From assembly GCA_017411405.1 (NCBI GenBank), contig JAFQQE010000015.1, positions 25,204 to 89,203 on the forward strand: 64,000 bases of DNA, given 5' to 3'. Below, one piece after another: positions 9,217-31,933 of the stretch (position 1 is the stretch's first letter; each line of letters begins with the position of its first letter). The position numbers and the translations under genes are program-made. Source of the stretch: Bacilli bacterium (GTDB lineage Bacteria > Bacillota_I > Bacilli_A > RF39 > UBA660). The notes beneath the pieces are model-generated. The model saw only the letters and a program-made list of their open reading frames with translations, was not told where the DNA came from and did no database searches.

Positions 9217-9293
9217 AATATACCTCTCAAAAATAAATTATATAAAAATTATATCATAAATTTATCTAAAATAAAAAAATAGTTAAAAAAAAA

Positions 9294-9896
9294 CTATTCT
9301 TTCTTAATATCTGAAATAGATAATTTATTATGTTTAGCATTTCTATTCCAAAACATATTAGCAAAATAACAATATATATTATTGTTTATATAATCTACTG
9401 TTGTAAAAAATTCTTCAGTTTCTTTTTTTTCTTTTATAAAAGTTGCAAAATTCTCTATATCTTTCAAAAATTTCTTAGAAATAAATCTAAATTTTTTATT
9501 ACCAACTACTTCACCAGCTCCTATTAATATTGATGAACAATATTTCAAATTAACTTTCTTACACCAATTTTTAATTATATTTAAAGCTGTAACATTTTGT
9601 TCAGCTTCTCTAAAGCCACAATTTATAACAAAATAAACCAACTTAGATTCAAATTTAATATTATTATCAATAATATAATCAAAAAACTCTAACAATTTTG
9701 AAGGAGGAGCATCAACATATAAAGGAAGCGCAAATACTATCACATCAGATTTATATATATTAGATATTATATCTTCTCTACTATCTTTATTTATACTAAA
9801 AAACACATAATTGTCTAATTCTTTAGAAATAATATCCAAAAACTTTAAAGAATTACTACTTTCTAATTTTGGACTACAATTAATTAAAGTATACAT
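9294..9896 (-). CDS. flavodoxin-like fold / NAD(P)H-dependent FMN reductase family protein
   Basis: 200 aa. The N-terminus MYTLINCSPKLESSNS resembles the xxINGSPKxxxSNT start of flavodoxin_2-type reductases. Confidence 0.55.
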   Translation of the reverse strand: MYTLINCSPKLESSNSLKFLDIISKELDNYVFFSINKDSREDIISNIYKSDVIVFALPLYVDAPPSKLLEFFDYIIDNNIKFESKLVYFVINCGFREAEQNVTALNIIKNWCKKVNLKYCSSILIGAGEVVGNKKFRFISKKFLKDIENFATFIKEKKETEEFFTTVDYINNNIYCYFANMFWNRNAKHNKLSISDIKKE

Positions 9897-10378
9897 TTAT
9901 TTATCTCCTTTAATTTACTAATATATTTAACATTATAAGATTGAGCATTTAAATTTATAGCATTTGCTTTTACTAACCTTTCTAAACACATTTTATCTTC
10001 TTTAGAAACTTCACCATAAATATAAATAGAAAGTTTTAACTTTTCATCATATCTACTTTCATGATGAACTTCACCATTTCTAATAGTAAAATATGGTAAA
10101 ACATATCCTATACTTCTCTCTAAAACTTTCTTAACACTATGACTATAACAACCATATCTGTTTTTGCTAATAATTATAAGTTCACTAGAGTCCTTTAAAT
10201 AATCACACATAGAAAAAAATTCATCATTAAAAATACATCTTTTAGGATGTTTAATCCAACAAGAAAAACATCCAATACAATTATTATTACAACAATTAGA
10301 TGACAATATTTTATCATCTGTATTAAAGCTTATATTTTTTAAATCTTTATCATTTAAATCATGTATTATTGTTCTCAT
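9884..10378 (-). CDS. flavodoxin-family-like protein with Cys cluster
   Basis: 164 aa. CIGCFSCWIKHPKRC resembles the Cys motif of iron-sulfur flavoprotein/flavodoxin-family proteins. Overlaps the downstream gene by 13 nt. Confidence 0.45.
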   Translation of the reverse strand: MRTIIHDLNDKDLKNISFNTDDKILSSNCCNNNCIGCFSCWIKHPKRCIFNDEFFSMCDYLKDSSELIIISKNRYGCYSHSVKKVLERSIGYVLPYFTIRNGEVHHESRYDEKLKLSIYIYGEVSKEDKMCLERLVKANAINLNAQSYNVKYISKLKEINKCIL

Positions 10379-10418
10379 ATTAAAACATATTTATTAAAAG
10401 GATTATTATTACAATTAT

Positions 10419-11111
10419 TTAAATAAATAATCTTTGTTTAATTTCATCCAATAATTTCTTGTTATATGATATTAAAAATAATAATATACTTATTATCAAA
10501 ATTGGTAAAATCGCATATAAAGACCATGTTAAAGAAATCTTTTCATATTTAAATAAATCTATACTACTTTCAATACCAATTATAGCAACAGAACTAACAA
10601 CTAAACATAAAACAATACTTCTAATTAAACTCTTTCTTCGTTTTTTTATCAAGAAAGTACATAACATAACATATATCCATAATATAAATATAAATGGCAA
10701 AACCAAATAAATAAACCAATGCATCCCACTATTTAAATAAGCAATTACAAAAAGTAACAATTCTATTCCAACAAAAGCCAAAGTATGTGAAATATACACA
10801 CTTTTAAAATTTAAATAACTTAATAAAGAACCAAAACATATAATCGAAAAAACCACATATATAGACCACGTAACAGAATGAGTAATAATTATATTACATA
10901 ATACAGTTACTAAAGCTAAAACAAATAAAACAAAATAACATATTTTTACTAAAAACTTAAAATCAACACTTTTAAATTTTTCAATTTGATTTGAGTATAC
11001 AGAATAAGAAACTTCATCCTTTAAATTTGGATTAATAACTTTTGTATTACATAAAGGACACTTTTTTTCGGATTTTGCAAGTTTCACCCCACAATTAACA
11101 CAATATGACAT
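10419..11111 (-). CDS. zinc-ribbon polytopic membrane protein (DUF6320-like architecture)
   Basis: 230 aa. N-terminal CVNCG...CPLCN zinc ribbon followed by about 6 TM helices. Confidence 0.6.
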   Translation of the reverse strand: MSYCVNCGVKLAKSEKKCPLCNTKVINPNLKDEVSYSVYSNQIEKFKSVDFKFLVKICYFVLFVLALVTVLCNIIITHSVTWSIYVVFSIICFGSLLSYLNFKSVYISHTLAFVGIELLLFVIAYLNSGMHWFIYLVLPFIFILWIYVMLCTFLIKKRRKSLIRSIVLCLVVSSVAIIGIESSIDLFKYEKISLTWSLYAILPILIISILLFLISYNKKLLDEIKQRLFI

Positions 11112-11113
11112 AA

Positions 11114-12400
11114 TTACCTCCTATTATTACTTTCTATTAAAACAGGAATTCCCATTTCAACCAATTTTGTAAAAAATAATTTTTCTAACTCTGTTTCTTT
11201 TATTCTTCTAGAAAAAGATATATATAATTTATCATTACAACTAACACATGATATTGTTCCCGGATTATTACGAGATCTTCCAATTATAAAATTAATATTT
11301 TTAATATATTTTGACATACTATTAGGTAAATCAATATTACCTAAATTAGAAAACGTTGTACTACAATACCTATCACCCATTAAATACTCACTAAAAGATA
11401 ATATATATTTTTTTAAAAACATAGGAATTAATCTAATAAAATAATTTCTTGCTAATTTAACATTACTAGATATTTTTGCATTCAACTTCTTTTCAGTAAT
11501 CATTAAACCCATACTGTTTTTTACTATTTTAATAATTTCATCAAAATTATAATGCCCATACTTAGTTTCAATACCGATATTAACATATGAAGAAAAGTTT
11601 CTCATAGTATTAGACTTATAAAAATTTCTTAAATTAATTGGAACTAAAACTTTTAAAGGCTTATTATTTTTTCTTCTTTCTTTTTCTTGAATATCCTGTA
11701 AACTAGATAATATAACAGATACAAAAAACTGAGTTATAGTACAATCATATCTTTTACTTATTTTTTTTATATCATCAACTAAAATTTCACCAGTTATTAT
11801 ATTTAATAAATGACTATCTATTAATGTTCCTTTATAATGATATGCAGTTTTTTCTTGCTCCAAAAAAGTTGTTTTTCTAGCATATTTTTGAAAACTATCC
11901 ATAATTTCTTCTTTTTTAGGGGATTTTTTAGGATTTAATATTTTATCTGAATATTCAATGCTTATTTTATTCTTTATTTTTAAATATTCAGCAACTAAAG
12001 AAAGTAAAAATGTTATAGCTCCAGTTCCATCAGTAAGAGCATGAAAGCATTCGAAAGAAATACTTTTATCATAATAACGAACTCTAAACATAAATCCTTT
12101 ATTTTCCTTAAAATTTATCCTAATCATTGGATTATTAACATCCTCTTCTATTATAGGCACACTATTAATATGTTTAAAATAATGCCAAAACAATCCTTGA
12201 TTTAGTTTATAATTAAAAGTAGGAAATCTTTTTAAAATTATCTTTAAAGCCTTATTTAATATAAGTTCATCTACTTGTTCTTTTAAAGTTACACTAACTC
12301 TAAACATAGATGCATATTTTCTAGTTAAAGTAGATGGATATATTGTTGCAGCATTATCTAATTTTATCCAATTAGGAATAATTTTCAACTTTTTTACCAT
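11114..12400 (-). CDS. HxxxD-type acyltransferase (condensation / alcohol acetyltransferase / WS-DGAT-like superfamily)
   Basis: 428 aa. CFHALTDGTG carries the HxxxDG catalytic motif. Only 2 nt separate it from the downstream gene. Confidence 0.65.
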   Translation of the reverse strand: MVKKLKIIPNWIKLDNAATIYPSTLTRKYASMFRVSVTLKEQVDELILNKALKIILKRFPTFNYKLNQGLFWHYFKHINSVPIIEEDVNNPMIRINFKENKGFMFRVRYYDKSISFECFHALTDGTGAITFLLSLVAEYLKIKNKISIEYSDKILNPKKSPKKEEIMDSFQKYARKTTFLEQEKTAYHYKGTLIDSHLLNIITGEILVDDIKKISKRYDCTITQFFVSVILSSLQDIQEKERRKNNKPLKVLVPINLRNFYKSNTMRNFSSYVNIGIETKYGHYNFDEIIKIVKNSMGLMITEKKLNAKISSNVKLARNYFIRLIPMFLKKYILSFSEYLMGDRYCSTTFSNLGNIDLPNSMSKYIKNINFIIGRSRNNPGTISCVSCNDKLYISFSRRIKETELEKLFFTKLVEMGIPVLIESNNRR

Positions 12401-12671
12401 AATATCCCTCCTACTTAATTAATCTTTATACTATCATACTTACAAATATAAAACAATTAAAAACAAATAATTTTATATAATGCATAAAATTATAGCACCG
12501 TTATAAGTATCTATTATTCTTAAATTTCTTTTTTCACAATATTCATTTTTCCCTTATTTGAGCATCAATAGAATATCCAAAGTCTTTTAGTTCTTCTCTT
12601 GTATATGATTTTTTATTTTCTAATATTAAAAAAATCAAACACTCATATAAAGTGTGCGAGTATTAACCTCA

Positions 12672-12707
12672 ATGGAGCAAATGCGTTATTGGTAACAACC
12701 TTTTTCA
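12672..12707. repeat. direct repeat DR-1 (tRNA 3'-half-like; att-like)
   Basis: ATGGAGCAAATGCGTTATTGGTAACAACCTTTTTCA is 34/36 identical to 15667..15702. Its first 15 nt (from TGGAGC) match the plus-strand image of the tRNA-Gly 3' end (TGGAGCAAGTGAGCG) at 11/15. GGTAACAACC resembles the T-arm GGAATCGAACC. Confidence 0.8.
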
Positions 12708-12750
12708 TATTTAATTTATCATATGTAATTTAATATATCAATATGAAATT

Positions 12751-12785
12751 AACCGACAAGATAACCGACAAGATATAAGCAAGAT
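12751..12785. repeat. tandem 12-mer AACCGACAAGAT x2 plus a degenerate third unit
   Basis: aaccgacaagat aaccgacaagat ataagcaagat read directly. It lies 9 nt beyond the LysR stop and about 45 nt inside DR-1. Confidence 0.8.
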
Positions 12786-12793
12786 GATTAAAA

Positions 12794-13663
12794 TTATTTT
12801 AAATAATTTATAAATGTTTTACTTGCAAAAGTTGATGTTATTGATTTATTAGTCGCCAAATAAACATTTATATTTGGTATTTTTTTATTTAATTTTAATT
12901 CTTTTAAATTTGGATAATTTCTTTTAGCTAAGTCTATTATAACAAAACCAATGCCTAAACCAATATTTGTAAATTCTGTAATTAATTCTTGACTTATAAC
13001 TTCCATTTTAGGAATTAATTTAACATTATTTTGTAATGCTATATAATCTAATAATTTTCTGCTATTAGATTCTTCTTTTTGTAATATTAAAGGATATTTA
13101 TTTAAATCTTCAAATTTATTAATTTCATCATTATAAAATTCATGATTATAAACAAAACCTTGTTTTAATTCTTTTATTTTTTCTAAATTTAAGTTAGTTT
13201 CTTTTATATTACTTTCATTAAAAATTACAAAATCTAATTTACCTAATTTTAAATCATTAATTAGATTACTTGTTAAATCATTTATTATGTTAATGTTGAT
13301 ATTAGCATAATCAGTGTGAAATTTTTTTAAAACATCTATTAGAATTAATTTGGTTAAAGTTGTTGAACATCCAATATTAATTTCTCCTTTTGTTAAATCT
13401 TTGAAAGAAGTAAATTCATTTTCTGCATTATTAATTAATTCCAAAGCTCCTTTAACATATTGATAAAACATTTTACCTTCTTCTGTTAATTCCATACCTT
13501 TATTACTTCGTAAAAATAAAGTACCACCTAAGCTATCTTCTAATTTCCTTATTGATTGTGATATAGCTGGTTGAGATATGTGTAATTCTTCACTGGCTTT
13601 AGTCATATGTTTGTATTTTGCAACAGTATAAAAAACTCTATATAACTCTAAATCTATATTCAT
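12794..13663 (-). CDS. LysR family transcriptional regulator
   Basis: N-terminal HTH (MTKASEELHISQPAISQSIRKLE) and a LysR-type substrate-binding C-terminal domain. AAGGAG RBS precedes the ATG at 13663; the ORF-track start at 13672 is a GTG inside the RBS. Confidence 0.9.
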   Translation of the reverse strand: MNIDLELYRVFYTVAKYKHMTKASEELHISQPAISQSIRKLEDSLGGTLFLRSNKGMELTEEGKMFYQYVKGALELINNAENEFTSFKDLTKGEINIGCSTTLTKLILIDVLKKFHTDYANININIINDLTSNLINDLKLGKLDFVIFNESNIKETNLNLEKIKELKQGFVYNHEFYNDEINKFEDLNKYPLILQKEESNSRKLLDYIALQNNVKLIPKMEVISQELITEFTNIGLGIGFVIIDLAKRNYPNLKELKLNKKIPNINVYLATNKSITSTFASKTFINYLK

Positions 13664-13754
13664 TATAAGCACTCCTTATGGATATGATAACATAAATATA
13701 TTGTACTTATCAACAAAAAGTTTGTAAAATACAAGTGAAGGGAAGAAAAATAAT

Positions 13755-14747
13755 ATGGAATTATTAAATAATAAAAAAGAAATTGATAAACCAATATATA
13801 TATTTACTGGATATTATGATTCAAGCGAAGATTGCTATGGTCCTTGTTTTGGACAGCCTGATTCTTATATATATGCAGAATACGAAAATATAAAAAGTAG
13901 TGTATATAATAGAGATAATAAAAGTGTTTTAAAAAAAGATATGTCTGATTTTGAAAAAGATAAAATAATAATTAAAGCTGAAATGTATGTTACTACTAAA
14001 GAAGTTAGAAAAGTTTTTAATGAAGAATTAAATAATATAAATAATAAAACAATTTATGAGTGTATTGAAGAAACAAGAAAAAGAATTAAAAATTTAAGCT
14101 ATTTAAAAAGTCCAGAATATAAAGAGAAAGTTTTATTAGATAAAATTCATGAATTATATAATAAAGTTAATAGTAAATTTATAAAAAAAGAAATATTATA
14201 TAGTGGAAAATTTCTTGATATTTTAAGAGAAATATATAAATTACCAAATGAAAAAGTAATTGAAAAAGAAAAAGTTATTAAAAATAATGGAAAAGATTCT
14301 GTAATAGTAGTTTCAATAACTAAAGATAATGAATATATAATTACTTTTCAAAACAGAATAAAAGATAAAATAATAGCAGAGTTTCCATCAGGATACATAG
14401 AAAATAATGAAGATGTAATAGAAGCAGTTAAAAGAGAATTGAAAGAAGAAACAGGTTATATATCTAATAATATATATATAATTGATCAAGCTTATACTTC
14501 TCCTGGAATTGATAATTCTATAACATATATTGTAATTGCAAAAGATTGTTTTAAAGAAGAAAAAACAGAAAGAGATAGTAATGAATTAATATCATTTGAT
14601 TTGTTTTCAGAAAAGGAATTAGAATATTTAATAAAAAGCAATATAATGAATGGTGCTTTAAATAAATTGGCCTATTATAATTTGATTAGTAATTCAAAAA
14701 AATATAACAAACCTTCTAATCAATGTTTACAAAAAATATTATTATAA
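13755..14747 (+). CDS. Nudix hydrolase (ADP-ribose pyrophosphatase-like C-terminal domain) with unknown ~140-aa N-terminal extension
   Basis: 330 aa. Perfect Nudix box Gx5Ex7REUxEExGU in GYIENNEDVIEAVKRELKEETGY. The preceding LYSGKFLDILREIYKLPNEKVIEKEKV resembles the NudF/ADPRase N-terminal strand region. Residues 1-140 have no recognisable motif. Confidence 0.8.
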   Translation: MELLNNKKEIDKPIYIFTGYYDSSEDCYGPCFGQPDSYIYAEYENIKSSVYNRDNKSVLKKDMSDFEKDKIIIKAEMYVTTKEVRKVFNEELNNINNKTIYECIEETRKRIKNLSYLKSPEYKEKVLLDKIHELYNKVNSKFIKKEILYSGKFLDILREIYKLPNEKVIEKEKVIKNNGKDSVIVVSITKDNEYIITFQNRIKDKIIAEFPSGYIENNEDVIEAVKRELKEETGYISNNIYIIDQAYTSPGIDNSITYIVIAKDCFKEEKTERDSNELISFDLFSEKELEYLIKSNIMNGALNKLAYYNLISNSKKYNKPSNQCLQKILL

Positions 14748-14794
14748 AAAATTTAGAGTATCAGTTTATTTAAAATAAAAAAGGAGGAGTTTGT

Positions 14795-15604
14795 ATGCCA
14801 AAAAAAATTATATATCATTATAAAAGAAATGGGGATAATAAAGATTGTATATTAGAAGTTCCATATTATGAAACAATTCAAAAAATAAACGGAAATGATT
14901 TTAGAAAAATTTTTATATTAGACATACGCTATTTAAAACATCGGGAAGAGATTTTTAGAAATTTTGATAATTTTCAAACACAATTGTTAGCTGATGAATT
15001 TTTCTCTTTACCTAAAGATACTGAATATCCTATGACTTTCTCTTTATATTTTTTAAATTATAATAATAAGATAGTAAATTGTGAAGAGATTTTATATGAT
15101 TATCATTTTGCATTGAAAGATTTCATAAGTATTGATGAATATAACAAAATTTTAAGAAAAGAACTAAATTTAATAGTTGTAAATAGTAATTCATCTTATA
15201 ATTATAATGGTAAAACAATACAAACTAATAATTTTAATTTAATATACGGATTGAATGGTAGTGGTAAAACCAGATTTTTAAAAGATATGGCATCTAAAAA
15301 AAATATACCTTTATTTTATCTAAATAAAAAATTTGAAGAAAAAAACATTTTACTCTCTAATTCTTTTCAATATTTAGAAAATTTATCAAAAATAATTGAT
15401 TATTGTCAAACTCAAAACATTCCACTTTTATTAGATGATTTATGTTGGTATTCTTTTGATTGGAGAAATCAAATAAAAGTTATTGATACATTATATGATT
15501 ATTCTCATAATAATGATGTTTTTTTTACATCTGCTCAGTATGAAATAAAGCGATTAGTAAAAAAACGTTCACATAAACCTAATATAATTGAGTTTGACAT
15601 ATAA
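14795..15604 (+). CDS. P-loop NTPase with unknown N-terminal domain
   Basis: 269 aa. Walker A is YGLNGSGKTRF and Walker B-like is IPLLLDDL about 55 residues later. The N-terminal ~140 aa are unrecognised. AAGGAGGAG RBS precedes the ATG, and the gap from the Nudix gene is 47 nt. Confidence 0.7.
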   Translation: MPKKIIYHYKRNGDNKDCILEVPYYETIQKINGNDFRKIFILDIRYLKHREEIFRNFDNFQTQLLADEFFSLPKDTEYPMTFSLYFLNYNNKIVNCEEILYDYHFALKDFISIDEYNKILRKELNLIVVNSNSSYNYNGKTIQTNNFNLIYGLNGSGKTRFLKDMASKKNIPLFYLNKKFEEKNILLSNSFQYLENLSKIIDYCQTQNIPLLLDDLCWYSFDWRNQIKVIDTLYDYSHNNDVFFTSAQYEIKRLVKKRSHKPNIIEFDI

Positions 15605-15639
15605 AAAAACTAATTCATTTCTGAATTAGTTGTAATAAA

Positions 15640-15666
15640 GCTTGATCGGTTCAAGCGTTTTTTCTT
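15640..15666 (+). terminator. rho-independent terminator after the ATPase gene
   Basis: GCTTGA-tcgg-TTCAAGC hairpin followed by GTTTTTTCTT. A second hairpin, CTAATTCA-tttc-TGAATTAG, lies at 15610..15629. The terminator directly abuts DR-2. Confidence 0.7.
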
Positions 15667-15702
15667 ATGGAGCAAATGCGCTAGTGGTAACAACCTTTTT
15701 CA
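15667..15702. repeat. direct repeat DR-2 (tRNA 3'-half-like; att-like)
   Basis: ATGGAGCAAATGCGCTAGTGGTAACAACCTTTTTCA is 34/36 identical to DR-1, in the same orientation. Confidence 0.8.
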
Positions 15703-15775
15703 ACAATATTTTATAAAAATTAAATAATCTTGTCAATATTGAAAAGCGTAAAAATATATTTGATTTTTTATCAAT

Positions 15776-16261
15776 TTATTTAATATACGAAGTATCAAAT
15801 CCTTCTGTAATATATCCATCACATTTAATGAAAGCTTTGGAATTTGGTGTGTTGTCATATATAAAAATAGCATATCCATAACAATTACAAGCTAAATTTG
15901 AATAACCTAAATCTTTAAGTGATACAATATATTCTTTGTTTTTCGACCAAGCTTCATAAAAAATTTTTTCAGTTCCATAATTATCCATTTTATTTTTTAT
16001 TTGCCATTCGATATCATCTGCAATTTGACATGATTTAATTTCATCAATATTATCTTTAACTTTTTTTGTATATGTAAATATACTAAATATAATGAAACCT
16101 AAAATTATGATATTAAGTATTAATATAAGTATATTAAAGATTCCTTTACTCCTTAAGTTTTTTGCACAAATAATAGTATTTATAATTAAACATATTATTC
16201 CTAATATATTCATTCCAAATTTAATAAGGACCAAACTTATAACTAATAAAATAAATGACAT
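15776..16261 (-). CDS. membrane protein (3 TM) with Cys-containing C-terminal soluble domain, unknown function
   Basis: 161-aa ORF. Hydrophobic N-terminal half; the C-terminal ~85 aa contain CNCYGY...KCDGY. No family recognised. Confidence 0.5.
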   Translation of the reverse strand: MSFILLVISLVLIKFGMNILGIICLIINTIICAKNLRSKGIFNILILILNIIILGFIIFSIFTYTKKVKDNIDEIKSCQIADDIEWQIKNKMDNYGTEKIFYEAWSKNKEYIVSLKDLGYSNLACNCYGYAIFIYDNTPNSKAFIKCDGYITEGFDTSYIK

Positions 16262-16400
16262 ATTAAATTCTCCTTTCTATCTTTAATATAATTATAAATC
16301 TAATTGTATGGTACTTCAATAAATAATTTTTACTATATTAAAAATATTTAAAATATGTTAATATATTTCTTGTAAATTATTTTTTTAAAAGGAGCATTTT

Positions 16401-17168
16401 ATGAAAGAAATAAAAGATTTAGTAGAAATTATACCTGATGATGTAAAAAAAGAGATATATAAGGATGGAATTAAAACTACTGTTATTGAAACAGGGGAAA
16501 CTTTATCACTAATTCCAAGAACAATAAAAAATGCTTTTTCTCCACTTAAAATGTGGTGTATGAATAGAGAGTTTAGAGTTAAAGAGTTAGAATTAGAGTT
16601 ACAAAAAAAATTAGAAATAAAAAAAGAAGAGAATATTGTCGATTGCGATCCTAGTATTTTTATTCCATCAGCGCAAGCTATTAGTTATAATTGGGATAAA
16701 ATAGATATTAGAGAGATGTATTTAAATTTAATGGTTTCTGATATGGATATTACAAAAAAAGAAAATGTTCATCCAAGTTTTTCAGAAATTATAAAACAAA
16801 TGGATTCAATAGATGTTCAAGTTTTTACAAAACTTTATAGACAACACATTATACCAGTTTATGTATTAAAACATAAAAAAATAGAAGGAACAACTCCAAT
16901 ACTAGATTATTTATTAGATGACGGATTTTATATCAATATATCTGAATATAGATTAATTAAAAGTTTAAACAATTTGGAGAGATTAAAATTAATTGATATT
17001 GATGTTGATAGTTATTATGTAGATAAAAAAGTATATAATTTAATAGAAAATAGTACTATTTTTAAAAATTACAAAGCTGAATTTTTAGATACATTGGTTA
17101 TTAAAAAAGGAATGATTAAAAAAACAGAATTTGGAAAAGGTTTTTTTAATGTGTGTTGTGGGCAATAA
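16401..17168 (+). CDS. Abi-alpha (DUF4393) family protein, abortive-infection associated
   Basis: 255 aa. IFIPSAQAISYNWDKIDIREMYLNLMVSDMD...VHPSFSEIIKQMDSIDVQVF matches the conserved core I recall for DUF4393/Abi_alpha (..LrnmFanLLassm....vHPaFveIIkqLsp.da..l). AAGGAG RBS. Confidence 0.65.
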   Translation: MKEIKDLVEIIPDDVKKEIYKDGIKTTVIETGETLSLIPRTIKNAFSPLKMWCMNREFRVKELELELQKKLEIKKEENIVDCDPSIFIPSAQAISYNWDKIDIREMYLNLMVSDMDITKKENVHPSFSEIIKQMDSIDVQVFTKLYRQHIIPVYVLKHKKIEGTTPILDYLLDDGFYINISEYRLIKSLNNLERLKLIDIDVDSYYVDKKVYNLIENSTIFKNYKAEFLDTLVIKKGMIKKTEFGKGFFNVCCGQ

Positions 17169-17255
17169 TGTTTTCTATAATAAAAAATTATTAGAATTAA
17201 CTATAAGTTTTATATTTATGTGTTATAATAAAATAGATAAATGGAGGTTTTGGAA

Positions 17256-18029
17256 ATGGAAAATTATACTTACAAACATATTTTATTAGGATTAAGAAAA
17301 GAATATTTAGAAAACAATGAAAAACTAGATAAATTAAGAGAATATGTATATTTCACTAAAGATAAAAAAAGTAATTATTATTTCAATATGATTTCTAACT
17401 CAAAAAATAAAACAGAAATGGTAGTAGATAGAGATAATATAAGAGAGAGTATATTTAGAAAATATGGATATAATAGAGTACCTACTCGTGCTTTTATGCG
17501 TATGTATGAAATAGAATTAAATTGTTTATTAAGAAAAAAATCTTTTAAGAAAAAAGACTTTAATATGAATATTATTGAGGGTAAAGAACGAGAATTTCAA
17601 GAGTTAATTAAAGAAATATTAAATTCGGATTTTGCTATTAATATGTTTTTAACTGATATCATTAAATCTAAAAGTTATTTAGATGAAGATTTAAAAAATG
17701 CTATTCTTCAACCGAATGTTTGTAATTATATATTTACTTTACGTACAGATAAATCTGAATTTGAATATGAAGGAAGAAAAGATATTATAGAATTTAGTAG
17801 TGTAAGTAAAATGAATGAAAAATTTAAGCCTTTGACTCAAGAACATATAGACGTTATTACTAATATTGAATTTCCTAAAGAATCATTTTCTTCTTATCAT
17901 CAAAATGTTATTGAAAAAAATTTAGATGCAAGACCTATAGTTTTATCTGAAGATTATATACCAAGCATTGGAGCAACATTTGAAATAAAAGAGGAACCTA
18001 AAAAATTAGTATTAATTAATAAAAAATAA
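17256..18029 (+). CDS. hypothetical protein (partner of the Abi-alpha gene)
   Basis: ORF 17241..18029. A GGAGG RBS lies 8 nt before the ATG at 17256, which favours the MENYTYK start. No motif recognised. Confidence 0.6.
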   Translation: MENYTYKHILLGLRKEYLENNEKLDKLREYVYFTKDKKSNYYFNMISNSKNKTEMVVDRDNIRESIFRKYGYNRVPTRAFMRMYEIELNCLLRKKSFKKKDFNMNIIEGKEREFQELIKEILNSDFAINMFLTDIIKSKSYLDEDLKNAILQPNVCNYIFTLRTDKSEFEYEGRKDIIEFSSVSKMNEKFKPLTQEHIDVITNIEFPKESFSSYHQNVIEKNLDARPIVLSEDYIPSIGATFEIKEEPKKLVLINKK

Positions 18030-18045
18030 AAGAGTTAAATTCGAT

Positions 18046-18078
18046 AAGTATATTGTAATCAATATGCTTTTTTCTTTT
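18046..18078 (+). terminator. rho-independent terminator
   Basis: AAGTATATT-gtaatc-AATATGCTT hairpin (one G-U pair) followed by a T-run. Confidence 0.6.
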
Positions 18079-18273
18079 GAAAGTTTGTGTACACAAATGC
18101 AGTATTTTATTAAAAAAATGACTAAAATCCCATAAAAAAATAATATGAGCATAAGAGGATGCTGGCAACAATGTGGACATTTTATTATTCTATGAAATAT
18201 GTGTATATTTTCACCATAATTACCATGTTTATATTTATCATATTGTTTTTGACATTTTTACTAAAAACTCAAT

Positions 18274-18309
18274 GGAGCGAATGAGAGTATACTTCCAAAC
18301 CCCTTTGAA
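18274..18309. repeat. direct repeat DR-3 (more diverged tRNA 3'-half-like copy)
   Basis: TGGAGCGAATGAGAGTATACTTCCAAACCCC. Its first 15 nt match TGGAGCAAGTGAGCG of the tRNA at 12/15. It shares the CTCAATGGAGC left flank with DR-1. Confidence 0.55.
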
Positions 18310-18635
18310 TTTTAAAAACCTTATAAATAAAGGATTTTGTGTTTTGACTCACCTCAAAGGGTTAATAGTTTTGTACAAAAAATTAATGATTAAAAATTAT
18401 TCTAAACACAGATTTAGTTGAATTATTAAATGAATAATTTGAGTTCTAGATATTGTGAAATATTCTTTATTTCATTCAACAATTAATAGCGCAATCATTC
18501 AACAAAACATTTATGCATCATTTGCACATTAGATTATAATAAACATACAATTATTCAACAAATTTAACTGAATCAATGGGAATATAGTAAAATAAGTGAA
18601 AATATGTTAAAATTATTTTGGACGTGATTTATATT

Positions 18636-19418
18636 ATGAAAATGTTAAGTGTAATAAATAATGATGAGATAAGAAACGAATTAAAAAAATTTGGAGAAAA
18701 AAATCAAATAAGTGAAGATGAAGTTATTTGTTCAATTGTTTATGAATTTGCAAGCAAACTTCCTTATTCAATGGATTACATGGATAAAGATTTTGTTCCA
18801 GGCATATTTTTGAATGTTTCACCAGTGAATCCTAGTAAATGGATTTTTAAAGATTATAGTAGTTTGTATTATAAGATGATTAATTGGGGCGATACAAAGA
18901 AAAGTGGTATTCTTCTTCAAATATGTAATATTTTTCAAGCTATGTTGATGGGACAATTTCCTAGTAATTATCAATTAACAGAAGAAGACTTTCATAATTT
19001 AGGTATTGATCAAATGACGAGTGATGATGAATATAATCGATTTTTATTTGAAACATTAGAAATGCTTCCTCAATATTGTTTGAAATTAAATTCAACTCAA
19101 AATTCATATGAAAGAAGAAAAATTTTAGATGATATATATTTGGTAATATTAGATAGAGTTGGTCAAAAGATTGGTGGTTTTAGAAGAACATCCGTGCATG
19201 GTGAAATAATTAGTGTTCAAGAACACAAGGCAACAATCCGTTTATTTCCCCACAGAGACTTAGATATGTTATATTATTTTGAAAGAATAGAATTTGGTTT
19301 TGGTGTTAGAAATTTAGTTGATAATATAAATAAAAAAATTGCTTTGGGAGTAAATCAAAGTAATGAAAATATGTATTTAGAATCTGAAAATGAAAATAAA
19401 GGACCAAAAAGGAAGTAA
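18636..19418 (+). CDS. hypothetical protein
   Basis: ORF 18618..19418 starts at a TTG; the first ATG is at 18636. No clear RBS and no motif recognised. A terminator follows it. Confidence 0.55.
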   Translation: MKMLSVINNDEIRNELKKFGEKNQISEDEVICSIVYEFASKLPYSMDYMDKDFVPGIFLNVSPVNPSKWIFKDYSSLYYKMINWGDTKKSGILLQICNIFQAMLMGQFPSNYQLTEEDFHNLGIDQMTSDDEYNRFLFETLEMLPQYCLKLNSTQNSYERRKILDDIYLVILDRVGQKIGGFRRTSVHGEIISVQEHKATIRLFPHRDLDMLYYFERIEFGFGVRNLVDNINKKIALGVNQSNENMYLESENENKGPKRK

Positions 19419-19426
19419 AAAAATAC

Positions 19427-19456
19427 CAGGCTATTGAATTAGCCTGTTTTATTTTT
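19427..19456 (+). terminator. rho-independent terminator
   Basis: CAGGCTA-ttgaat-TAGCCTG hairpin followed by TTTTATTTTT. Confidence 0.75.
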
Positions 19457-19525
19457 AAATTTTTACTAGATATTATTAAAATTATGCGGTATTGTTTGTG
19501 TGAAGTTAGTTATTAACTTCGGGAG

Positions 19526-19867
19526 GTGAACGATATTTGTAAGATTTCAGTAGAAATAATGATATTCAACAATGACACTAAAGAAGAATTGAATAAGATA
19601 GCTAAACATAATGGAATAAATGTTATATATTATGAGGGTTATATTGTTATGTTTGATAAGGTTAATATACATGCAATCACACCACATATGTTAGTTTTTT
19701 GTAAAAATGGAAATTATTTAGTAGTATTACATTATGATGAATATCATGAAGATGATGTCTTATTCTTCGTAGATGGAAAAAAGTATACATTGCTCACAAT
19801 AAAAAAATATATTAGAAATTATTTTAAAAATAATTCTAATATAAATGGTAAAATAAACAACAAATAA
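19526..19867 (+). CDS. hypothetical protein
   Basis: 113-aa ORF. The start is uncertain because the GTG at 19526 is embedded in a GGGAGGTG Shine-Dalgarno-like sequence. No motif recognised. Confidence 0.45.
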   Translation: MNDICKISVEIMIFNNDTKEELNKIAKHNGINVIYYEGYIVMFDKVNIHAITPHMLVFCKNGNYLVVLHYDEYHEDDVLFFVDGKKYTLLTIKKYIRNYFKNNSNINGKINNK

Positions 19868-19943
19868 AATACAATTGATTAGCAACGAGTGGGATTTGGG
19901 CATAAAAAAATTGATACAATTAAGCATCAATTAATCAACAATT

Positions 19944-20018
19944 TGGAGCAAGTGAGCGGAATCGAACCGCCGTCTCAGCCTTGGCAAGGCCGCATACTAA
20001 CCGCTGTACTACACCTGC
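19944..20018 (-). tRNA. tRNA-Gly (anticodon GCC), CCA encoded
   Basis: Reverse complement is GCAGGTG TA GTAC AGCGGTTA GTAT G CGGCC TTGCCAA GGCTG AGAC GGCGG TTCGATT CCGCT CACTTGC TCCA. This folds as a 75-nt cloverleaf with GCC in the anticodon loop. Confidence 0.93.
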
Positions 20019-22282: not shown

Positions 22283-22783
22283 TCATATTTTTTTACGAAG
22301 TTCTTTTGCTTTTAATAAAACTTTTTCATGTATATTAATCGCTTCATCTAAAATATACTTATCTAACAAAAACTTTTCACCAGATTTTATAGAATTAAGA
22401 TAAGCACTATTTTCTCTAGATATAATATCAAATAACTCTAGTTCACTATAATTTTTATATTTATTCCAAACATAATCTAATAAAATACTATAACTTTTAC
22501 CATTAGCTACTGATACTTCTTTTAAAGCATTTCTACCAAAAGTTAAAATATTTTTATTTTGATTACCAAATTTATTAAAAATACTATATAAAATTGGCCC
22601 TGACTTAGTTAAAGTAAATCTCTCAGAAAATAAACAACTATTATAATTAAATAAATAATCTCTATATAAAAAATATATTAAAAAATTTAATTTTAATGGA
22701 GTTAGTAATATATATTCTTCAAAAGATTTTTTTAGTATACTATTAGCAACTTGTATTGGTACTACCATAATTAATTTCTCCAT
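22283..22783 (-). CDS. Panacea / DUF4065 (SocA-like) domain protein, putative antitoxin
   Basis: 166 aa. LTPLKLNFLIYFLYRDYLFNYNSCLFSERFTLTKSGPILYSIFNKFG fits the DUF4065 core (..KLqKLlYf......l.....lf.e.feAw.yGPv...vy..f). Its start overlaps the upstream stop by 1 nt (TAATG). Confidence 0.6.
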   Translation of the reverse strand: MEKLIMVVPIQVANSILKKSFEEYILLTPLKLNFLIYFLYRDYLFNYNSCLFSERFTLTKSGPILYSIFNKFGNQNKNILTFGRNALKEVSVANGKSYSILLDYVWNKYKNYSELELFDIISRENSAYLNSIKSGEKFLLDKYILDEAINIHEKVLLKAKELRKKI

Positions 22784-23157
22784 TATACATGAGGTAAATT
22801 AGGATAATTAGGTTCTATTGAAAGTTCTCCAAAGTTGATAAAAATAAAAACAATTAATAATATAAAAAGTATCATTATTATTAAACTGAAAATCATTCCT
22901 CCAAGACTTAATCCAAAACCTATACCTAATTTACTACTTTCTTTTTTATACTTTTTAGCATATATAATACTAATAATTCCAGGTACAAAACATAATATAT
23001 TGAAAAAAAATGATGATATTAAACATATTATACCTAATACTAAACTAGTTTCTTTATTCCCACTACTTTTAACTGCACTTTCATATAACTTATTTCCACA
23101 ATTAAAACAATACATGCTTTCTTTGTTATTTTTTTGTCCACAATTATAACAATACAT
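22783..23157 (-). CDS. zinc-ribbon + DUF4190-like small membrane protein
   Basis: AAGAGGTG RBS precedes the ATG at 23157 (MYCYNCGQ...CFNCGNKL zinc ribbon). The C-terminal half has 2-3 TM helices. The ORF-track start at 23205 is less likely. Confidence 0.65.
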   Translation of the reverse strand: MYCYNCGQKNNKESMYCFNCGNKLYESAVKSSGNKETSLVLGIICLISSFFFNILCFVPGIISIIYAKKYKKESSKLGIGFGLSLGGMIFSLIIMILFILLIVFIFINFGELSIEPNYPNLPHV

Positions 23158-23240
23158 AATTACACCTCTTAACATAATTATATTGTCTTTTATTAAAGAT
23201 AACAATCTATATTTATAAACTTTACAAAAAAAGAGACAAA

Positions 23241-30429: not shown

Positions 30430-30759
30430 GTGAACGGTACATATTACCAAAATCCAACATTTCCAACAGCAACATCTAACAATTATACAGATACTATAGT
30501 ACCTGTTGGAACAAATTTAACAATGGAACAAAGTTACATTGAAAATATTCTTAGACTTAATAAAGGTAAAAAAGTCAAAGTATATGCAGCATTCCCTGAC
30601 TCTTTAGATTGGAAAGATTCTATTTACAACGGAATAATAGAACAAGCAGGAAGAGATCACCTAATAATAAGTAATCCTGAAACAGGAAAATGGTATCTAA
30701 TTCCAATGATATATTTAAACTTTGTTGAATTCGATGAAAGAGTTAATTATCAACTATAA
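30430..30759 (+). CDS. gerQ: spore coat protein GerQ-like
   Basis: 109 aa with a GTG start after a GAGGTG RBS. SYIENILRLNKGKKVKVY...GIIEQAGRDHLIISNPETGKWYLIPMIYLNFVEFDE closely follows the GerQ/YwdL conserved core. Confidence 0.7.
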   Translation: MNGTYYQNPTFPTATSNNYTDTIVPVGTNLTMEQSYIENILRLNKGKKVKVYAAFPDSLDWKDSIYNGIIEQAGRDHLIISNPETGKWYLIPMIYLNFVEFDERVNYQL

Positions 30760-30783
30760 AAAATTATCACGAACGATAATTTT

Positions 30784-31299
30784 TTATTTTATATAACTTT
30801 CTAACATGTTTTTCTCATCACTTAATGTAGTTGATTCCCCATGACCCGGATAAATATTATAGTTTATATTAGTTTCGATTAACTTAGTTATACTATCCTT
30901 CATCAAATTAAAATCTCCACCCAAATCCCATCTGCCAATACAACCCTTAAATATAAAATCACCACTAAACATAATATTATCAAATATAAAACTAATAGAA
31001 TCCATAGTATGACCAGGATTATAATTAACTAAAAAATCAAATGTAGAAATTTTATTGAATCCTTCTTTTAAATTTTCAAAATTATATAAAATTACTTTAT
31101 AGTATTCTAAACAATTCTTTATAGCACCAACATGATCAAAATGATTATGAGTTAAAAGTATACCAACTACTTTTTTATCTACATTATTCTTTATAACTTC
31201 AAAATCACTTCCTGGATCAATAATCAAACATTCATTATCATTTTCTAAAATGTAACAATTAGTTTCTAGCATACCAACAATAAGTCTTTTTATTTTCAT
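30784..31299 (-). CDS. MBL-fold metallo-hydrolase (glyoxalase II-like)
   Basis: 171 aa with THNHFDHVG (HxHxDH) and a downstream GH motif. Confidence 0.85.
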   Translation of the reverse strand: MKIKRLIVGMLETNCYILENDNECLIIDPGSDFEVIKNNVDKKVVGILLTHNHFDHVGAIKNCLEYYKVILYNFENLKEGFNKISTFDFLVNYNPGHTMDSISFIFDNIMFSGDFIFKGCIGRWDLGGDFNLMKDSITKLIETNINYNIYPGHGESTTLSDEKNMLESYIK

Positions 31300-31368
31300 A
31301 ATTAAACACCCACAAATATTTTACAATAATTATAAACTTTATGCTATAATTATTCTAGGTGAAATAAA

Positions 31369-31917
31369 ATGAAGTTAATAATGATAATAATACTAATAAT
31401 AATTATAATACTAGGAACAATAATAGTAGAATATATATTAAACTACAATAAATTACAATCATTAAATATAAAAATAAATGAATCAGAAAGTATAATAGAT
31501 AATGAATTACGTAATAAATATGATTTAATAATAAGATCTTCTAATATAATAAATAAATTATTAAAAAAAGAAATATCTTATTTTAAAGAATTAGAAGAAT
31601 TAAAGACAAAGAAAATATCTAACTTCGAAATGGATAGAAAAATAACTGAAGGAGAAAACTTAATTGAAAAAGTTAAAAACGATTATAACTCTTTAAATGA
31701 TAACGAAGAATATTTAGATATTACAAATTCATTAAAAGATAGTGATGAAGTATTGGAAGCAGCCAAATCATTTTATAACAAATACACTACAGAAATAAAT
31801 CTTATTATAAAAAAATTTCCAACTAATTTAATAGCTAAAATACATAAAATAAAATTAAGAAACTACTTTGATGGAAAAAATATGTTTGATGACGAAATAA
31901 AAGATTTTAAATTATAA
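31369..31917 (+). CDS. lemA: LemA family protein
   Basis: 182 aa. N-terminal TM helix. LemA-like segments (ELRNKYDLI, AKSFYNKYTTEINLIIKKFPTNLIA). Confidence 0.75.
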   Translation: MKLIMIIILIIIIILGTIIVEYILNYNKLQSLNIKINESESIIDNELRNKYDLIIRSSNIINKLLKKEISYFKELEELKTKKISNFEMDRKITEGENLIEKVKNDYNSLNDNEEYLDITNSLKDSDEVLEAAKSFYNKYTTEINLIIKKFPTNLIAKIHKIKLRNYFDGKNMFDDEIKDFKL

Positions 31918-31933
31918 TTAATAGGGCAGTACC

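Follow-up and report, generated by a model that had tools for sequence, protein, structure and literature searches.

For the ICESt1/ICESt3 elements of Streptococcus, tandem arrays have been modelled as the outcome of integration, decay to a recombinase-less element that still bears att sites, and further integration (PMC5704250). tRNA genes are classically targeted by tyrosine integrases (PMC4383910), and among the tycheposons of Prochlorococcus, a large serine recombinase (LSR) replaces the tyrosine recombinase in 27 of 937 elements (bioRxiv 10.1101/2020.12.28.424599). Here we describe a locus in a 64,000-nt stretch of DNA (the window), where the segment 12495-19943 is very likely a fossil tandem array of small LSR islands at an attB overlapping the extreme 3′ end of tRNA-Gly(GCC). 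What the sequence shows directly is its anatomy, its homology to intact elements, the symmetry of its sites and a breakpoint at the tRNA end (Table 1). The first-pass annotation had likewise described a composite at this 3′ end; its modules are indeed site-specifically integrated, but they are not bounded by tRNA-half duplicates of the tyrosine-integrase type.

Table 1. Features of the array and of the adjoining variable slot, in window coordinates.
Feature	Position	Strand	Basis or remark
Acyltransferase operon (DUF6320, ORF164, ORF200, AATase)	9243..12494	-	variable slot
AATase	11114-12400	-	acyltransferase operon
Element D remnant	12495..12671	-	just outside site 1; blastn, tblastn
D LSR codons ~12-46	12495-12601	-	frameshift, catalytic serine missing; blastn 90% to L014
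D partner-ORF 3′ end (87-aa ORF)	12583-12631	-	blastn 96% to L014
D flank, TTGAG-type with decayed hairpin	12632-12671	-	83% over 47 nt to L003 tRNA flank
Site 1, 36-mer: P half-site + core	12672..12707	-	nhmmer; alignment to relatives
Module A	12708..15666	+	Pfam
LysR regulator	12794-13672	-	Pfam; module A
NUDIX-domain protein	13755-14747	+	Pfam; weak PADLOC match PDC-S07
P-loop ATPase-like protein	14795-15604	+	Pfam; weak PADLOC match IetA/AriA-like
Site 2, 36-mer: P half-site GGTTGTTACC...GCATTTG + core CT-CCA	15667..15702	-	nhmmer E=4e-17
Module B cargo	15703..18091	+	three ORFs
ORF161	15776-16261	-	module B
Abi_alpha / PDC-S47 candidate defence protein	16401-17168	+	Pfam PF14337 E=2.7e-39; PADLOC PDC-S47 E=3.7e-62
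ORF262	17241-18029	+	module B
Module B LSR pseudogene remnant	18092..18257	-	tblastn, blastn
Site 3, attL-type junction	18258..18309	-	left half Y GGGGTTTGGAAGTATACTCTCATTCG, core CT-CCA, 15 nt of P′ arm TTGAGTTTTTAGTAA
Module C	18302..19899	+	two ORFs, antisense to tRNA
Module C ORF, 266 aa	18618-19418	+	ORF list
Module C ORF, 113 aa	19526-19867	+	ORF list
Flank X1 AATTGTTGATTAATTGATGCTTAATTGTATCAATTTTTTT	19900..19943	-	terminator-like hairpin + T-run, directly 3′ of tRNA
Intact tRNA-Gly(GCC)	19944..20018	-	ARAGORN; Rfam tRNA 61.4 bits
tRNA last 11 nt CACTTGCTCCA	19944-19954	-	B half of attB; proposed LSR crossover

The tRNA-Gly(GCC) gene of the first-pass annotation is confirmed at 19944-20018. 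Synteny with L003, L008, L010, L011 and L013 (the comparison loci are all metagenome assemblies) ends exactly at its 3′ end. The sister strain L003 is 99.96% identical to the window up to the tRNA and carries entirely different DNA from the 3′ end on. Homology between L011 and L010, L013 and L008 (92-95% nt) is also lost exactly at this end. On the other side, homology to relatives picks up again at 9242, a position upstream of the glycosyltransferase gene. The first-pass limits fall short here: the array runs ~180 bp further left, to 12495, and the wider variable slot probably reaches ~9243. The acyltransferase operon is placed inside the slot because it is absent at the same position in L008, L011 and L013; L010 has only a paralogue, 31.6% identical.

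Such a slot might also arise as a hotspot of homologous recombination between conserved flanks (the efflux gene plus tRNA, and the glycosyltransferase gene), with the att-like repeats as mere passengers. Each relative examined has something else in the whole stretch between the efflux gene and the tRNA, the loci share no cargo, and in four relatives the tRNA-plus-slot unit has the opposite orientation, showing that non-site-specific rearrangement occurred as well. However, breakpoints and tRNA 3′ terminus agree to the nucleotide, and the module edges coincide with att half-sites and LSR remnants. Moreover, one and the same element, with the LSR identical, is joined differently on its left in L019/L020 than in L021, and these junctions diverge immediately left of GCTCCA. 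We therefore regard a hotspot of this kind as improbable.

The three strings that the first-pass annotation quoted are present at 12673, 15668 and 18273 (the last had been written as 18274), and the measured spacings of 2995, 2605 and 1671 nt agree with its ~3.0, 2.6 and 1.7 kb. Against the tRNA 15-mer, the first and third sites match at 11/15 and 12/15 as counted by eye, whereas the second matches at 12/15 rather than 11/15. Matches of at least 12/15 occur in the window only at 15668, 18273 and the tRNA itself, with 0.2 expected. Sites 1 and 2 are a genuine repeat: they share a 36-mer block (33/36 identical), and a 28-mer pattern has two matches against 0.00 expected. The evidence for site 3 is weaker. 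It has no match to the 36-mer profile (nhmmer E=71), and its 11-mer is two mismatches from the tRNA, a level reached 21 times in the window. Nevertheless, it shares 15 of 16 positions with a 16-mer that spans the core and adjoining flank at site 1 (CATTYGCTCCATTGAG) and is found with at most three mismatches at sites 1 and 3 only (0.30 expected), and positions 18258-18285 have 93% identity to the junction between tRNA and P′ in L011 and L014. The outer half of its P′ half-site is deleted, leaving only the first 15 nt of the P′ arm, and its left half Y shows no recognisable P arm in the profile search and no tRNA likeness in the shuffle test.

According to the first-pass annotation, these sites are decayed copies of the tRNA 3′ half left by serial site-specific integration; as a tyrosine-integrase model, this would have the integrase lost or located elsewhere. 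The sites do share one orientation and adjoin an intact tRNA, and their terminal 11 nt match it at 10/11, 10/11 and 9/11, respectively. Upstream of this core, however, similarity to the tRNA is not above chance: once the terminal 11 nt were removed, the 74 nt upstream of each site aligned locally to the tRNA no better than shuffles (p=0.56, 0.71 and 0.66). The supposed T-arm remnant is thus unsupported, and the tRNA likeness is confined to ~11 nt around the crossover, rather than extending over decayed tRNA halves. In addition, the 33/36 agreement of the two 36-mers and the identity of site 1 to copies in other species (36/36 to L008 and L009, 35/36 to L011) mark conserved element sequence instead of independent decay products. 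No tyrosine recombinase was found among the Pfam-scanned element genes of the window and L011, nor among the Pfam families recorded for genes called at the other element loci; what the intact elements encode is an LSR, pseudogene fragments of which are found at the sites. Altogether, the tyrosine-integrase model is largely refuted, and we consider it very unlikely. The 36-mers at 12672 and 15667 are rather the P half-site plus the short crossover core of an LSR attachment site, and the ~11-nt likeness most likely arises because a single protein recognises all four half-sites.

The association of the 36-mer with tRNA-Gly, part of the first-pass reading, was borne out by genome scans. There is one match among 185,579 species genomes, one in the JGI metagenomes, and none in viral contigs. 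All copies on sufficiently long contigs, from related uncultured Bacilli, lie beside tRNA-Gly(GCC); in L008, L011 and the window the 36-mer has the same orientation as the tRNA and lies 0.6-7.3 kb downstream, and the contig of L012, of the same species as L011, stops short of the tRNA position. The 36-mer is 100% conserved among species only ~80% identical in neighbour genes, as might suit a host regulatory element, an sRNA or a dispersed repeat unrelated to mobile DNA. This reading is contradicted by the scans, which give only two copies in the 64 kb and essentially one locus per genome in the collections. An Rfam search was empty, and the 36-mer pairs by dyad symmetry with the P′ arm beside the LSR gene, making a host repeat extremely unlikely.

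Between its tRNA and its 36-mer, L011 has an intact LSR of 574 aa, which contains Resolvase and Recombinase domains, and a conserved partner ORF of 87 aa. In L014, a 97%-identical LSR directly follows tRNA-Gly with the same junction. Followed in the direction of the tRNA, an intact element leads from the tRNA through the core, a P′ arm bearing a terminator hairpin, the 87-aa partner ORF, the LSR, mostly antisense cargo and the P arm to the core again and the host flank. The reconstructed attP is a ~48-bp imperfect palindrome, GGTTGTTAC...CATTTG / CT / CCATTGAG...GTAACRACC, with its centre at the CT within GCTCCA, where the tRNA ends; it has a dyad symmetry of 17/23 in L011 and L019 (null 7.2 ± 2.3, p~6.5e-5). 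On the basis of sequence, we propose this CT (tRNA positions 72-73) as the crossover, where the LSR presumably catalyses strand exchange; a crossover there would spare the tRNA because P′ supplies CCA. The direct repeats of attL/attR are only 6-11 nt. In L009, the sequence flanking the 36-mer can be aligned to the native terminator of tRNA-Gly at two unoccupied loci, L013 and L010, and this junction is an attR of the form P-O-B′. The role of the LSR is suggested by its position and by the site architecture.

As judged from their junctions, tRNA siting is seen for part of the family, since the left halves in L017, L019 and L021 are not intact tRNAs. Related LSRs sit at other tRNA 3′ ends: that of L023, 71% identical, directly adjoins one and is accompanied by a P-core site at the distal side, and that of L024, 46% identical, belongs to a 10-kb element with tRNA-His on one side and, on the other, a P-like site with a terminator behind it. 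The LSR of the present islands shares only ~35% identity over its N-terminal half with the best phage LSRs, and is distinct from the characterised LSRs.

In the window itself, the LSR genes have shrunk to fragments. The first-pass annotation had reported no recombinase ORF, which is correct for intact ORFs (Pfam, PADLOC, PHROGs) and overlooks two LSR pseudogene fragments; a working integrase is indeed missing from the region, and tblastn found no intact LSR within the 64-kb window. The two deletion remnants point to an LSR as the type of recombinase. Both lie exactly where the element model would place them. In module B, positions 18168-18257, just inside site 3 and immediately next to its 15-nt P′ remnant, correspond to residues 258-287 of the L011 recombinase (30/30 aa, tblastn), the LSR remnant is 94-97% identical to L011/L014 by blastn, and positions 18092-18168 match the region 3′ of the LSR stop codon in L011 (83%, blastn). 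Module B, from site 3 to site 2, is an integrated LSR element in which two internal deletions cut the LSR to 90 nt and the P′ arm was trimmed to 15 nt. Its other end, site 2, is an attR-type junction: the outer flank at 15605-15666, with two hairpins, is homologous to the 36-mer flank in L008, and the region 15645-15720 is 79% identical to L008 (blastn).

Site 1, whose P arm continues its homology to L008 up to ~12751, is a P-core junction adjoining the remnant of a further element, D. The partner-ORF and LSR pieces of D begin ~40 nt beyond site 1, after the TTGAG-type flank. The GTAACRACC motif, which marks the P′ arms in L011, L014, L017, L019 and L023, is missing from the flank next to site 1 (TTGAGGTTAATACTC...), although these remnants come after it; the proximal end of D is therefore atypical or rearranged, and no distal att site of D was found left of 12495. 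Overall, the LSR fragments in the window have 90-97% DNA identity to L011/L014, compared to ~79-82% for host genes, which indicates horizontal spread.

Cargo, in part candidate anti-phage genes, is retained; it comprises the Abi_alpha/PDC-S47 protein, the NUDIX protein with the ATPase, and the LysR regulator. Modules A and C are recombinase-less segments, the origin of which is less clear. The half-site table shows that X1 is unlike the P′ arm of LSR elements, so that the tRNA/X1 junction looks like an unoccupied attB (B-O-B′), and simple serial integration into the tRNA does not explain module C. Its ORFs have no Pfam, PADLOC or PHROGs match, and a homologue is absent from all fetched loci. 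Module C (18302-19943) may be either a third integrated element or native DNA beside the unoccupied attB.

The recombinase-less modules could still be mobile (cis- or trans-mobilisable, as CIMEs) and acted on by an LSR located elsewhere or incoming. The tRNA attB would then recombine with the P-core sites at 12672 and 15667, and the defence cassettes would be deleted, excised or shuffled. At sites 1 and 2, conservation of the P half-site and core is still perfect, the tRNA junction resembles an intact attB, and the 99.96%-identical strain has other DNA past the tRNA, which points to very recent turnover. Recombinase-less segments also lie by the tRNA in L003, L008 and the window, and the same study's samples include related LSR elements that are intact. 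However, besides the absence of an intact LSR from the window, the truncated P′ arm at site 3 and the host-type right half of site 2 leave no complete attL/attR pairs, and the same array is found in all nine of the nine contigs that carry the flanking acyltransferase. Continuing mobility is thus unlikely. For the fossil array, we infer both the order of the integrations and its present immobility.

Similar to CIMEs and other cases of tandem accretion, the array would be built by site-specific integration, decay and the arrival of further elements at the same target. It differs in that those systems use tyrosine integrases and have longer direct repeats, whereas the att pairs of the present array are incomplete and any cis-mobilisation is putative. 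As in Islander-type tRNA islands, an intact tRNA is abutted, element DNA restores its 3′ end and the cargo consists of accessory genes, but the present locus lacks a tyrosine integrase, and its displaced tDNA does not exceed ~11 nt. SCCmec and the Enterococcus cassette chromosome are also LSR (Ccr) islands, located at the 3′ end of rlmH without inactivating the gene. Compared to SCCmec, the target here is a tRNA instead of a protein gene, one LSR with a conserved 87-101-aa ORF stands in place of the ccrAB pair, and the elements are small (4-10 kb). Tycheposons resemble this locus in forming additive islands adjoining tRNAs, where strain heterogeneity is greatest, with tandem junctions and defence or adaptation cargo. 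They differ in host phylum and element gene sets, being overwhelmingly tyrosine-recombinase based and flanked by partial tRNA copies. Altogether, the array is of an ordinary kind, similar to tandem integrative-island arrays at other sites; its unusual point is the use of a serine, not a tyrosine, recombinase at a tRNA target.

Sequence comparison across the interval between the acyltransferase operon and the tRNA gene located the three strings reported by the first-pass annotation on the plus strand at 12673, 15668 and 18273 (sites 1, 2 and 3), in the orientation of the tRNA 3' end. Their likeness to the tRNA 15-mer is 11, 12 and 12 of 15, compared to the 11, 11 and 12 first counted by eye; at least 12/15 is reached only at 15668, at 18273 and in the tRNA itself, with 0.2 expected. 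Sites 1 and 2 share a 36-mer, ATGGAGCAAATGCG[T/C]TA[T/G]TGGTAACAACCTTTTTCA, the two copies of which are 33/36 identical, and a 28-mer pattern covering both finds 2 matches in the window versus 0.00 expected. Site 3 is not recovered by the 36-mer profile (E=71), and its 11-nt end differs from the tRNA by two mismatches, a degree of similarity that occurs 21 times in the window. The P arm, the half-site that makes up the 36-mer together with the core, was also searched as an nhmmer profile, which gave no extra copies in the window or in the sister strain L003 and ruled out site 3 as a P-arm copy. Site 3 instead matches the core and outer flank of site 1, CATTYGCTCCATTGAG, at 15/16 positions, and these two sites are the only matches to this 16-mer at no more than 3 mismatches (0.30 expected). 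Close to the P arm, in the intergenic stretch from site 1 to the LysR gene, there is a perfect tandem duplication of the 12-mer AACCGACAAGAT, absent at site 2, which could be a candidate protein-binding site.

The sites had been taken for decayed tRNA 3' halves, each with a T-arm-like remnant. With the last 11 nt removed, the 74 nt upstream of the sites resemble the tRNA no better than shuffled sequence does (p=0.56-0.71), so the T-arm remnant is unsupported and nothing outside the 11-nt core speaks for decayed halves or pseudo-tRNAs. Rfam searches of the region at gathering and permissive thresholds returned the tRNA and no second tRNA-like match, and the 36-mer corresponds to no known RNA. 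Reading it as a short leader ORF (ATG GAG CAA ATG...) was dropped because stop codons close the frames after 5-7 codons and the frames vary from copy to copy. An Islander-type island, built by a tyrosine integrase at a tRNA, fails on both of its marks. In place of a displaced tRNA fragment there is no more than a 10/11-nt match in the terminal core. A tyrosine recombinase (PF00589-type) is found neither in any ORF of the window between 7.7 and 25.6 kb nor among the genes scanned in the element of L011, a related Bacilli locus, and no tyrosine-recombinase family is among the Pfam assignments listed for called genes in the comparison loci L011-L024.

A dispersed intergenic repeat of the REP or MITE kind would also yield several copies in one region. 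Searching with a degenerate 27-nt pattern revealed a single locus (L008, from a Bacilli MAG) among 185,579 species-representative genomes, a single 2-kb contig (L009) in the JGI metagenomes and no match in IMG/VR, in addition to the two copies of the 36-mer in the 64-kb window. Every copy whose contig reaches far enough adjoins tRNA-Gly; that of L008 lies 610 nt downstream of tRNA-Gly(GCC) in the same orientation, with one unrelated ORF in between. The dispersed-repeat reading was rejected on these counts, and the tie to tRNA-Gly, on which the first-pass annotation had staked its reading, holds. A viral origin was rejected as well: the 36-mer has no match in IMG/VR, and the large serine recombinase (LSR) found beside it in relatives has no close relative there, and its identity to phage integrases in GenBank is at most ~35% across half of its length.

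The same locus in relatives was reached via homologues of the cation-efflux protein adjoining the tRNA, which are 75-77% identical to that of the window; the DNA of the relatives is 92-95% identical among themselves. The entire interval from the efflux gene to the tRNA 3' end differs in each relative, and homology restarts exactly at the tRNA 3' terminus. Two relatives (L010 and L013) have no 36-mer and a native terminator after the tRNA. In two others of one species (L011 and L012), the 36-mer is present at 35/36. From the tRNA to the 36-mer, L011 carries an 87-aa ORF, a 574-aa LSR and two cargo genes without assigned function. The LSR consists of a Resolvase domain (PF00239, E=6.8e-33) and a Recombinase domain (PF07508, E=9.5e-24), and its catalytic domain matches TP901-1 integrase (3bvp). 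An LSR 97% identical to it follows tRNA-Gly directly in L014, at the same junction, CTCCA followed by TTGAGTTTTTAGTAACGACC. Moreover, the DNA past the 36-mer in the metagenomic contig L009 can be aligned to the terminator native to tRNA-Gly in L013 and L010, which is how an attR (P-core-B') should look.

We rebuilt attP from the P arm of attR and the P' arm of attL, which gave GGTTGTTACCAATAACGCATTTG-CT-CCATTGAGTTTTTAGTAACGACC, in full AAAGGTTGTTACCAATAACGCATTTGCTCCATTGAGTTTTTAGTAACGACCTAG. It has the form of a short attP: ~50 bp, with an imperfect dyad around a central dinucleotide and a short core. Over 23-nt arms, P matches the reverse complement of P' at 17/23 positions in L011 and in the related locus L019 (null mean 7.2, sd 2.3, p~6.5e-5), and the direct repeat shared by attL and attR spans only 6-11 nt. 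The dyad is centered on CT, tRNA positions 72-73. Judged by its sequence, this anatomy is predicted to be that of a serine-integrase att site. For one element with an identical LSR, the left junctions of L019 and L020 part from that of L021 immediately left of GCTCCA, and the conserved part of every 36-mer copy stops at GCTCCA(T), which together would bracket the crossover to GCTCCA. The half-sites share the motif CTCA.T.G near their center; we propose that the 36-mer end resembles the last 11 nt of the tRNA because half-sites recognised by a single protein come to share a central motif.

The window contains no intact recombinase of any type, as the first-pass annotation had held, and no functional element beside the array. 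It does contain two LSR pseudogene fragments, which that annotation had missed and which were found by tblastn and blastn with the L011 proteins; the domain pair of N-terminal Resolvase and Recombinase, encoded at one element end, is intact in relatives. The first fragment directly follows the 15-nt P' remnant of site 3, and the 77 nt after it are homologous to DNA downstream of the LSR stop codon. The second, past site 1, joins a piece of the small partner ORF that precedes the LSR to a piece of the LSR itself by a microhomology-mediated deletion that has removed the catalytic serine. These fragments resemble the elements of other species far more closely than the host genes resemble their counterparts (79-82%), indicating that the elements moved horizontally.

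Features of the tRNA-Gly slot, the array listed in order from the tRNA, with other parts of the window and comparison loci
Feature	Sequence	Position	Remarks
tRNA-Gly(GCC)	window	19944-20018	minus strand; sole tRNA in the window
X1 (flank after the tRNA)	window	19900-19943
Module C	window	18302-19899
Site 3	window	18258-18309
LSR fragment, residues 258-287	window	18168-18257	30/30 aa; DNA 94-97% to L011 and L014
Module B cargo	window	15703-18091
Site 2	window	15667
Flank past the site 2 36-mer	window	15605-15666	two hairpins
Module A	window	12708-15666
12-mer tandem duplication	window	12751-12774
Site 1	window	12672
Element D remnants	window	12495-12671
Partner-ORF 3' end (in D)	window	12583-12631	96%; ~40 nt past site 1, after TTGAG-type flank
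LSR codons ~12-46 (in D)	window	12495-12601	90%, one frameshift
Acyltransferase operon	window	ends 12400	left limit of the gene interval up to the tRNA
LysR regulator	window		between operon and tRNA
NUDIX-domain protein	window		same interval; weak PADLOC match PDC-S07, 2e-7
P-loop ATPase-like protein	window		same interval; weak IetA/AriA match, about 1e-4 to 1e-5
161-aa ORF	window		same interval
Abi_alpha protein	window		same interval; PADLOC candidate PDC-S47, E=3.7e-62
Three more ORFs	window		same interval; no assigned function
Inverted tRNA-Gly and slot unit	window	9243-20044
Genes between pheT and efflux gene	window	22283-23205	SocA/Panacea-domain antitoxin-like and zinc-ribbon membrane proteins
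Second plus-strand ORF patch	window	30430-33871	109, 182 and 645 aa
Flank past the 36-mer	L008	4790-4857	two hairpins
Post-tRNA genes	L003	11012-13297	class II aldolase-like and DFP-like flavoprotein, antisense, directly after tRNA; contig ends after 2.3 kb
Partner ORF	L011	11462-11725
Partner ORF	L015	84-347
Partner ORF	L017	144-416
Partner ORF	L019	6562-6852
Partner ORF	L022	9674-9907
Partner ORF	L023	142-414
Partner ORF	L024	9583-9888
Tandem LSR locus	L022	6181-11737
Mobilisable element	L024	9407-19461	10 kb

The window is otherwise almost all minus-strand with a strong negative GC skew, and the ORF list and the skew bear out that most genes of the slot lie on the plus strand. Among the anti-phage candidates there, whose clustering would make the slot a defence island, the Abi_alpha match is strong, and those of the NUDIX and ATPase proteins are weak. 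Next to the tRNA, X1 is a terminator and not P'-like. Site 3 is composed of a left half (Y), the core and the P' remnant, with the LSR remnant directly after it. Site 2 is P-core followed by a flank homologous to that past the L008 36-mer, and at site 1 the P-core precedes a TTGAG-type flank, after which come the element D remnants of the partner ORF and LSR. Module B is clearly an LSR element gutted by deletions, and element D is a stump. The tRNA junction of the window looks like an unoccupied attB, and module C may thus be native or imported by another route. A single simple series of integrations does not account for the array, since X1, Y and the atypical site 1 flank misfit. The feature is a decayed remnant, probably no longer active, and not a new kind of system. 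In both flanks past the 36-mer, at site 2 and in L008, the first of the two hairpins has a common ACCGAT center and differing stems (GCTTGA/TCAAGC versus CGTCGC/GTGACG), which suggests a conserved structured terminator. Elsewhere in the window, the GC skew rises from about -0.4 to -0.06 over the second patch of plus-strand ORFs, which may be a further accessory insertion.

The sister strain L003 is 99.96% identical to the window up to the tRNA and then continues into a TTGAG-type flank, 83% identical to that after site 1, and unrelated genes; its aldolase and flavoprotein genes are absent from the 64-kb window. Such identity up to the tRNA, followed by different DNA, indicates that turnover at the tRNA end is recent. 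The empty site suggested by the first-pass annotation, in which the acyltransferase operon would adjoin the tRNA, was not found: the same array is present in 9/9 contigs with an identical acyltransferase, and the operon is absent at this position in the relatives. The cargo proteins of the window have no homologue at the related loci, except a 31.6% acyltransferase paralogue in L010. The tRNA-Gly and slot unit is inverted relative to conserved neighbours in L008, L010, L011 and L013, together with ~26 nt upstream of the tRNA. In these four relatives the tRNA abuts a glycosyltransferase gene and points to the efflux gene; the arrangement is reversed in the window and L003, where the efflux gene adjoins the tRNA and the glycosyltransferase is the gene it points to. 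Between pheT and the efflux gene, at the position of the antitoxin-like and zinc-ribbon genes, the relatives carry cytidine deaminase and UDG-family genes.

Beyond this locus, the LSR has ~500 homologues, and a small ORF of 77-101 aa precedes the LSR in every homologue examined. These partner ORFs share 33-74% identity, belong to no Pfam family and have the invariant residues G30, T38-N39-I40, P45-I46 and Y48 (alignment A1), making them candidate accessory or directionality factors. In L023 (LSR 71% identical), the element directly adjoins the 3' end of a genuine tRNA, a P-core site lies on its distal side, and a restriction-modification pair and an OLD-family ATPase make up the cargo; the related elements L015 and L017 have large helicases in their cargo. 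On the 959-kb contig L024 (LSR 46%), an element with a Mob_Pre relaxase is flanked by tRNA-His(GTG) and a P-like site, GGGGGTAACAACC...GGCCCCA, with a terminator after it, and it looks like an integrative mobilisable element whose serine recombinase would act at the tRNA-His 3' end. L022 has, in tandem, a pair of resolvase-domain fragments, an LSR of 556 aa, and a partner ORF with an LSR of 578 aa; ahead of this partner ORF, the junction falls between ...ACTATGGTGCCA and TTTAGAATTTAATAACAACC, giving a core of TGCCA, unlike the tRNA-Gly type. The left halves of L017, L019 and L021 are not intact tRNAs and may be tandem junctions or decayed targets. We lean slightly towards a reading in which this LSR clade, with its partner ORF, targets the last nucleotides of tRNAs (CT 72-73 of tRNA-Gly(GCC), and the equivalent in tRNA-His for the 46% member), its P' arm restoring CCA and supplying a terminator, and builds exchangeable arrays of defence cassettes in low-GC uncultured gut Bacilli.

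Integration into a tRNA gene is usually taken as a hallmark of tyrosine integrases. Software that relies on a tRNA, a displaced fragment and a tyrosine-integrase signature would miss such elements, because they have a serine-family recombinase and a direct repeat of only 6-11 nt. Should the clade indeed use tRNA 3' ends, it would offer integrases that are compact and unidirectional and whose landing site is universally conserved and non-disruptive, of interest for genome engineering, and a concrete 50-bp attP/attB pair that can be tested; it would also explain a hypervariable slot for defence genes in an uncultured lineage of the ruminant gut.

Reviews of streptococcal elements place serine integrases in protein genes, and a 2026 provirus survey found RNA loci to be preferred by tyrosine integrases. 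According to a 2015 reference database paper, no serine-recombinase counterpart of the tyrosine-integrase tRNA islands was known, and the clade, if read correctly here, would be that counterpart. The idea of LSR islands at tRNAs is not wholly without precedent, since a preprint on Prochlorococcus tycheposons, which are tRNA-adjacent islands, reports an LSR in a minority of them (27/937; bioRxiv 10.1101/2020.12.28.424599). The window itself holds a site-specific island array with decay, in which the tRNA target is the unusual feature. The CIME/accretion model comes close to it (PMC5704250), a CIME being defined by the absence of integration and transfer genes and the retention of functional attL and attR; in the window, sites 1 and 2 have complete P-core halves, only 15 nt of the P' arm are left at site 3, and no proximal P' is recognisable in module A. 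Mechanistically, the array comes closest to SCCmec and the enterococcal cassette chromosome, in which LSR islands occupy the 3' end of rlmH and ccr-less remnants occur (PMC6222049).
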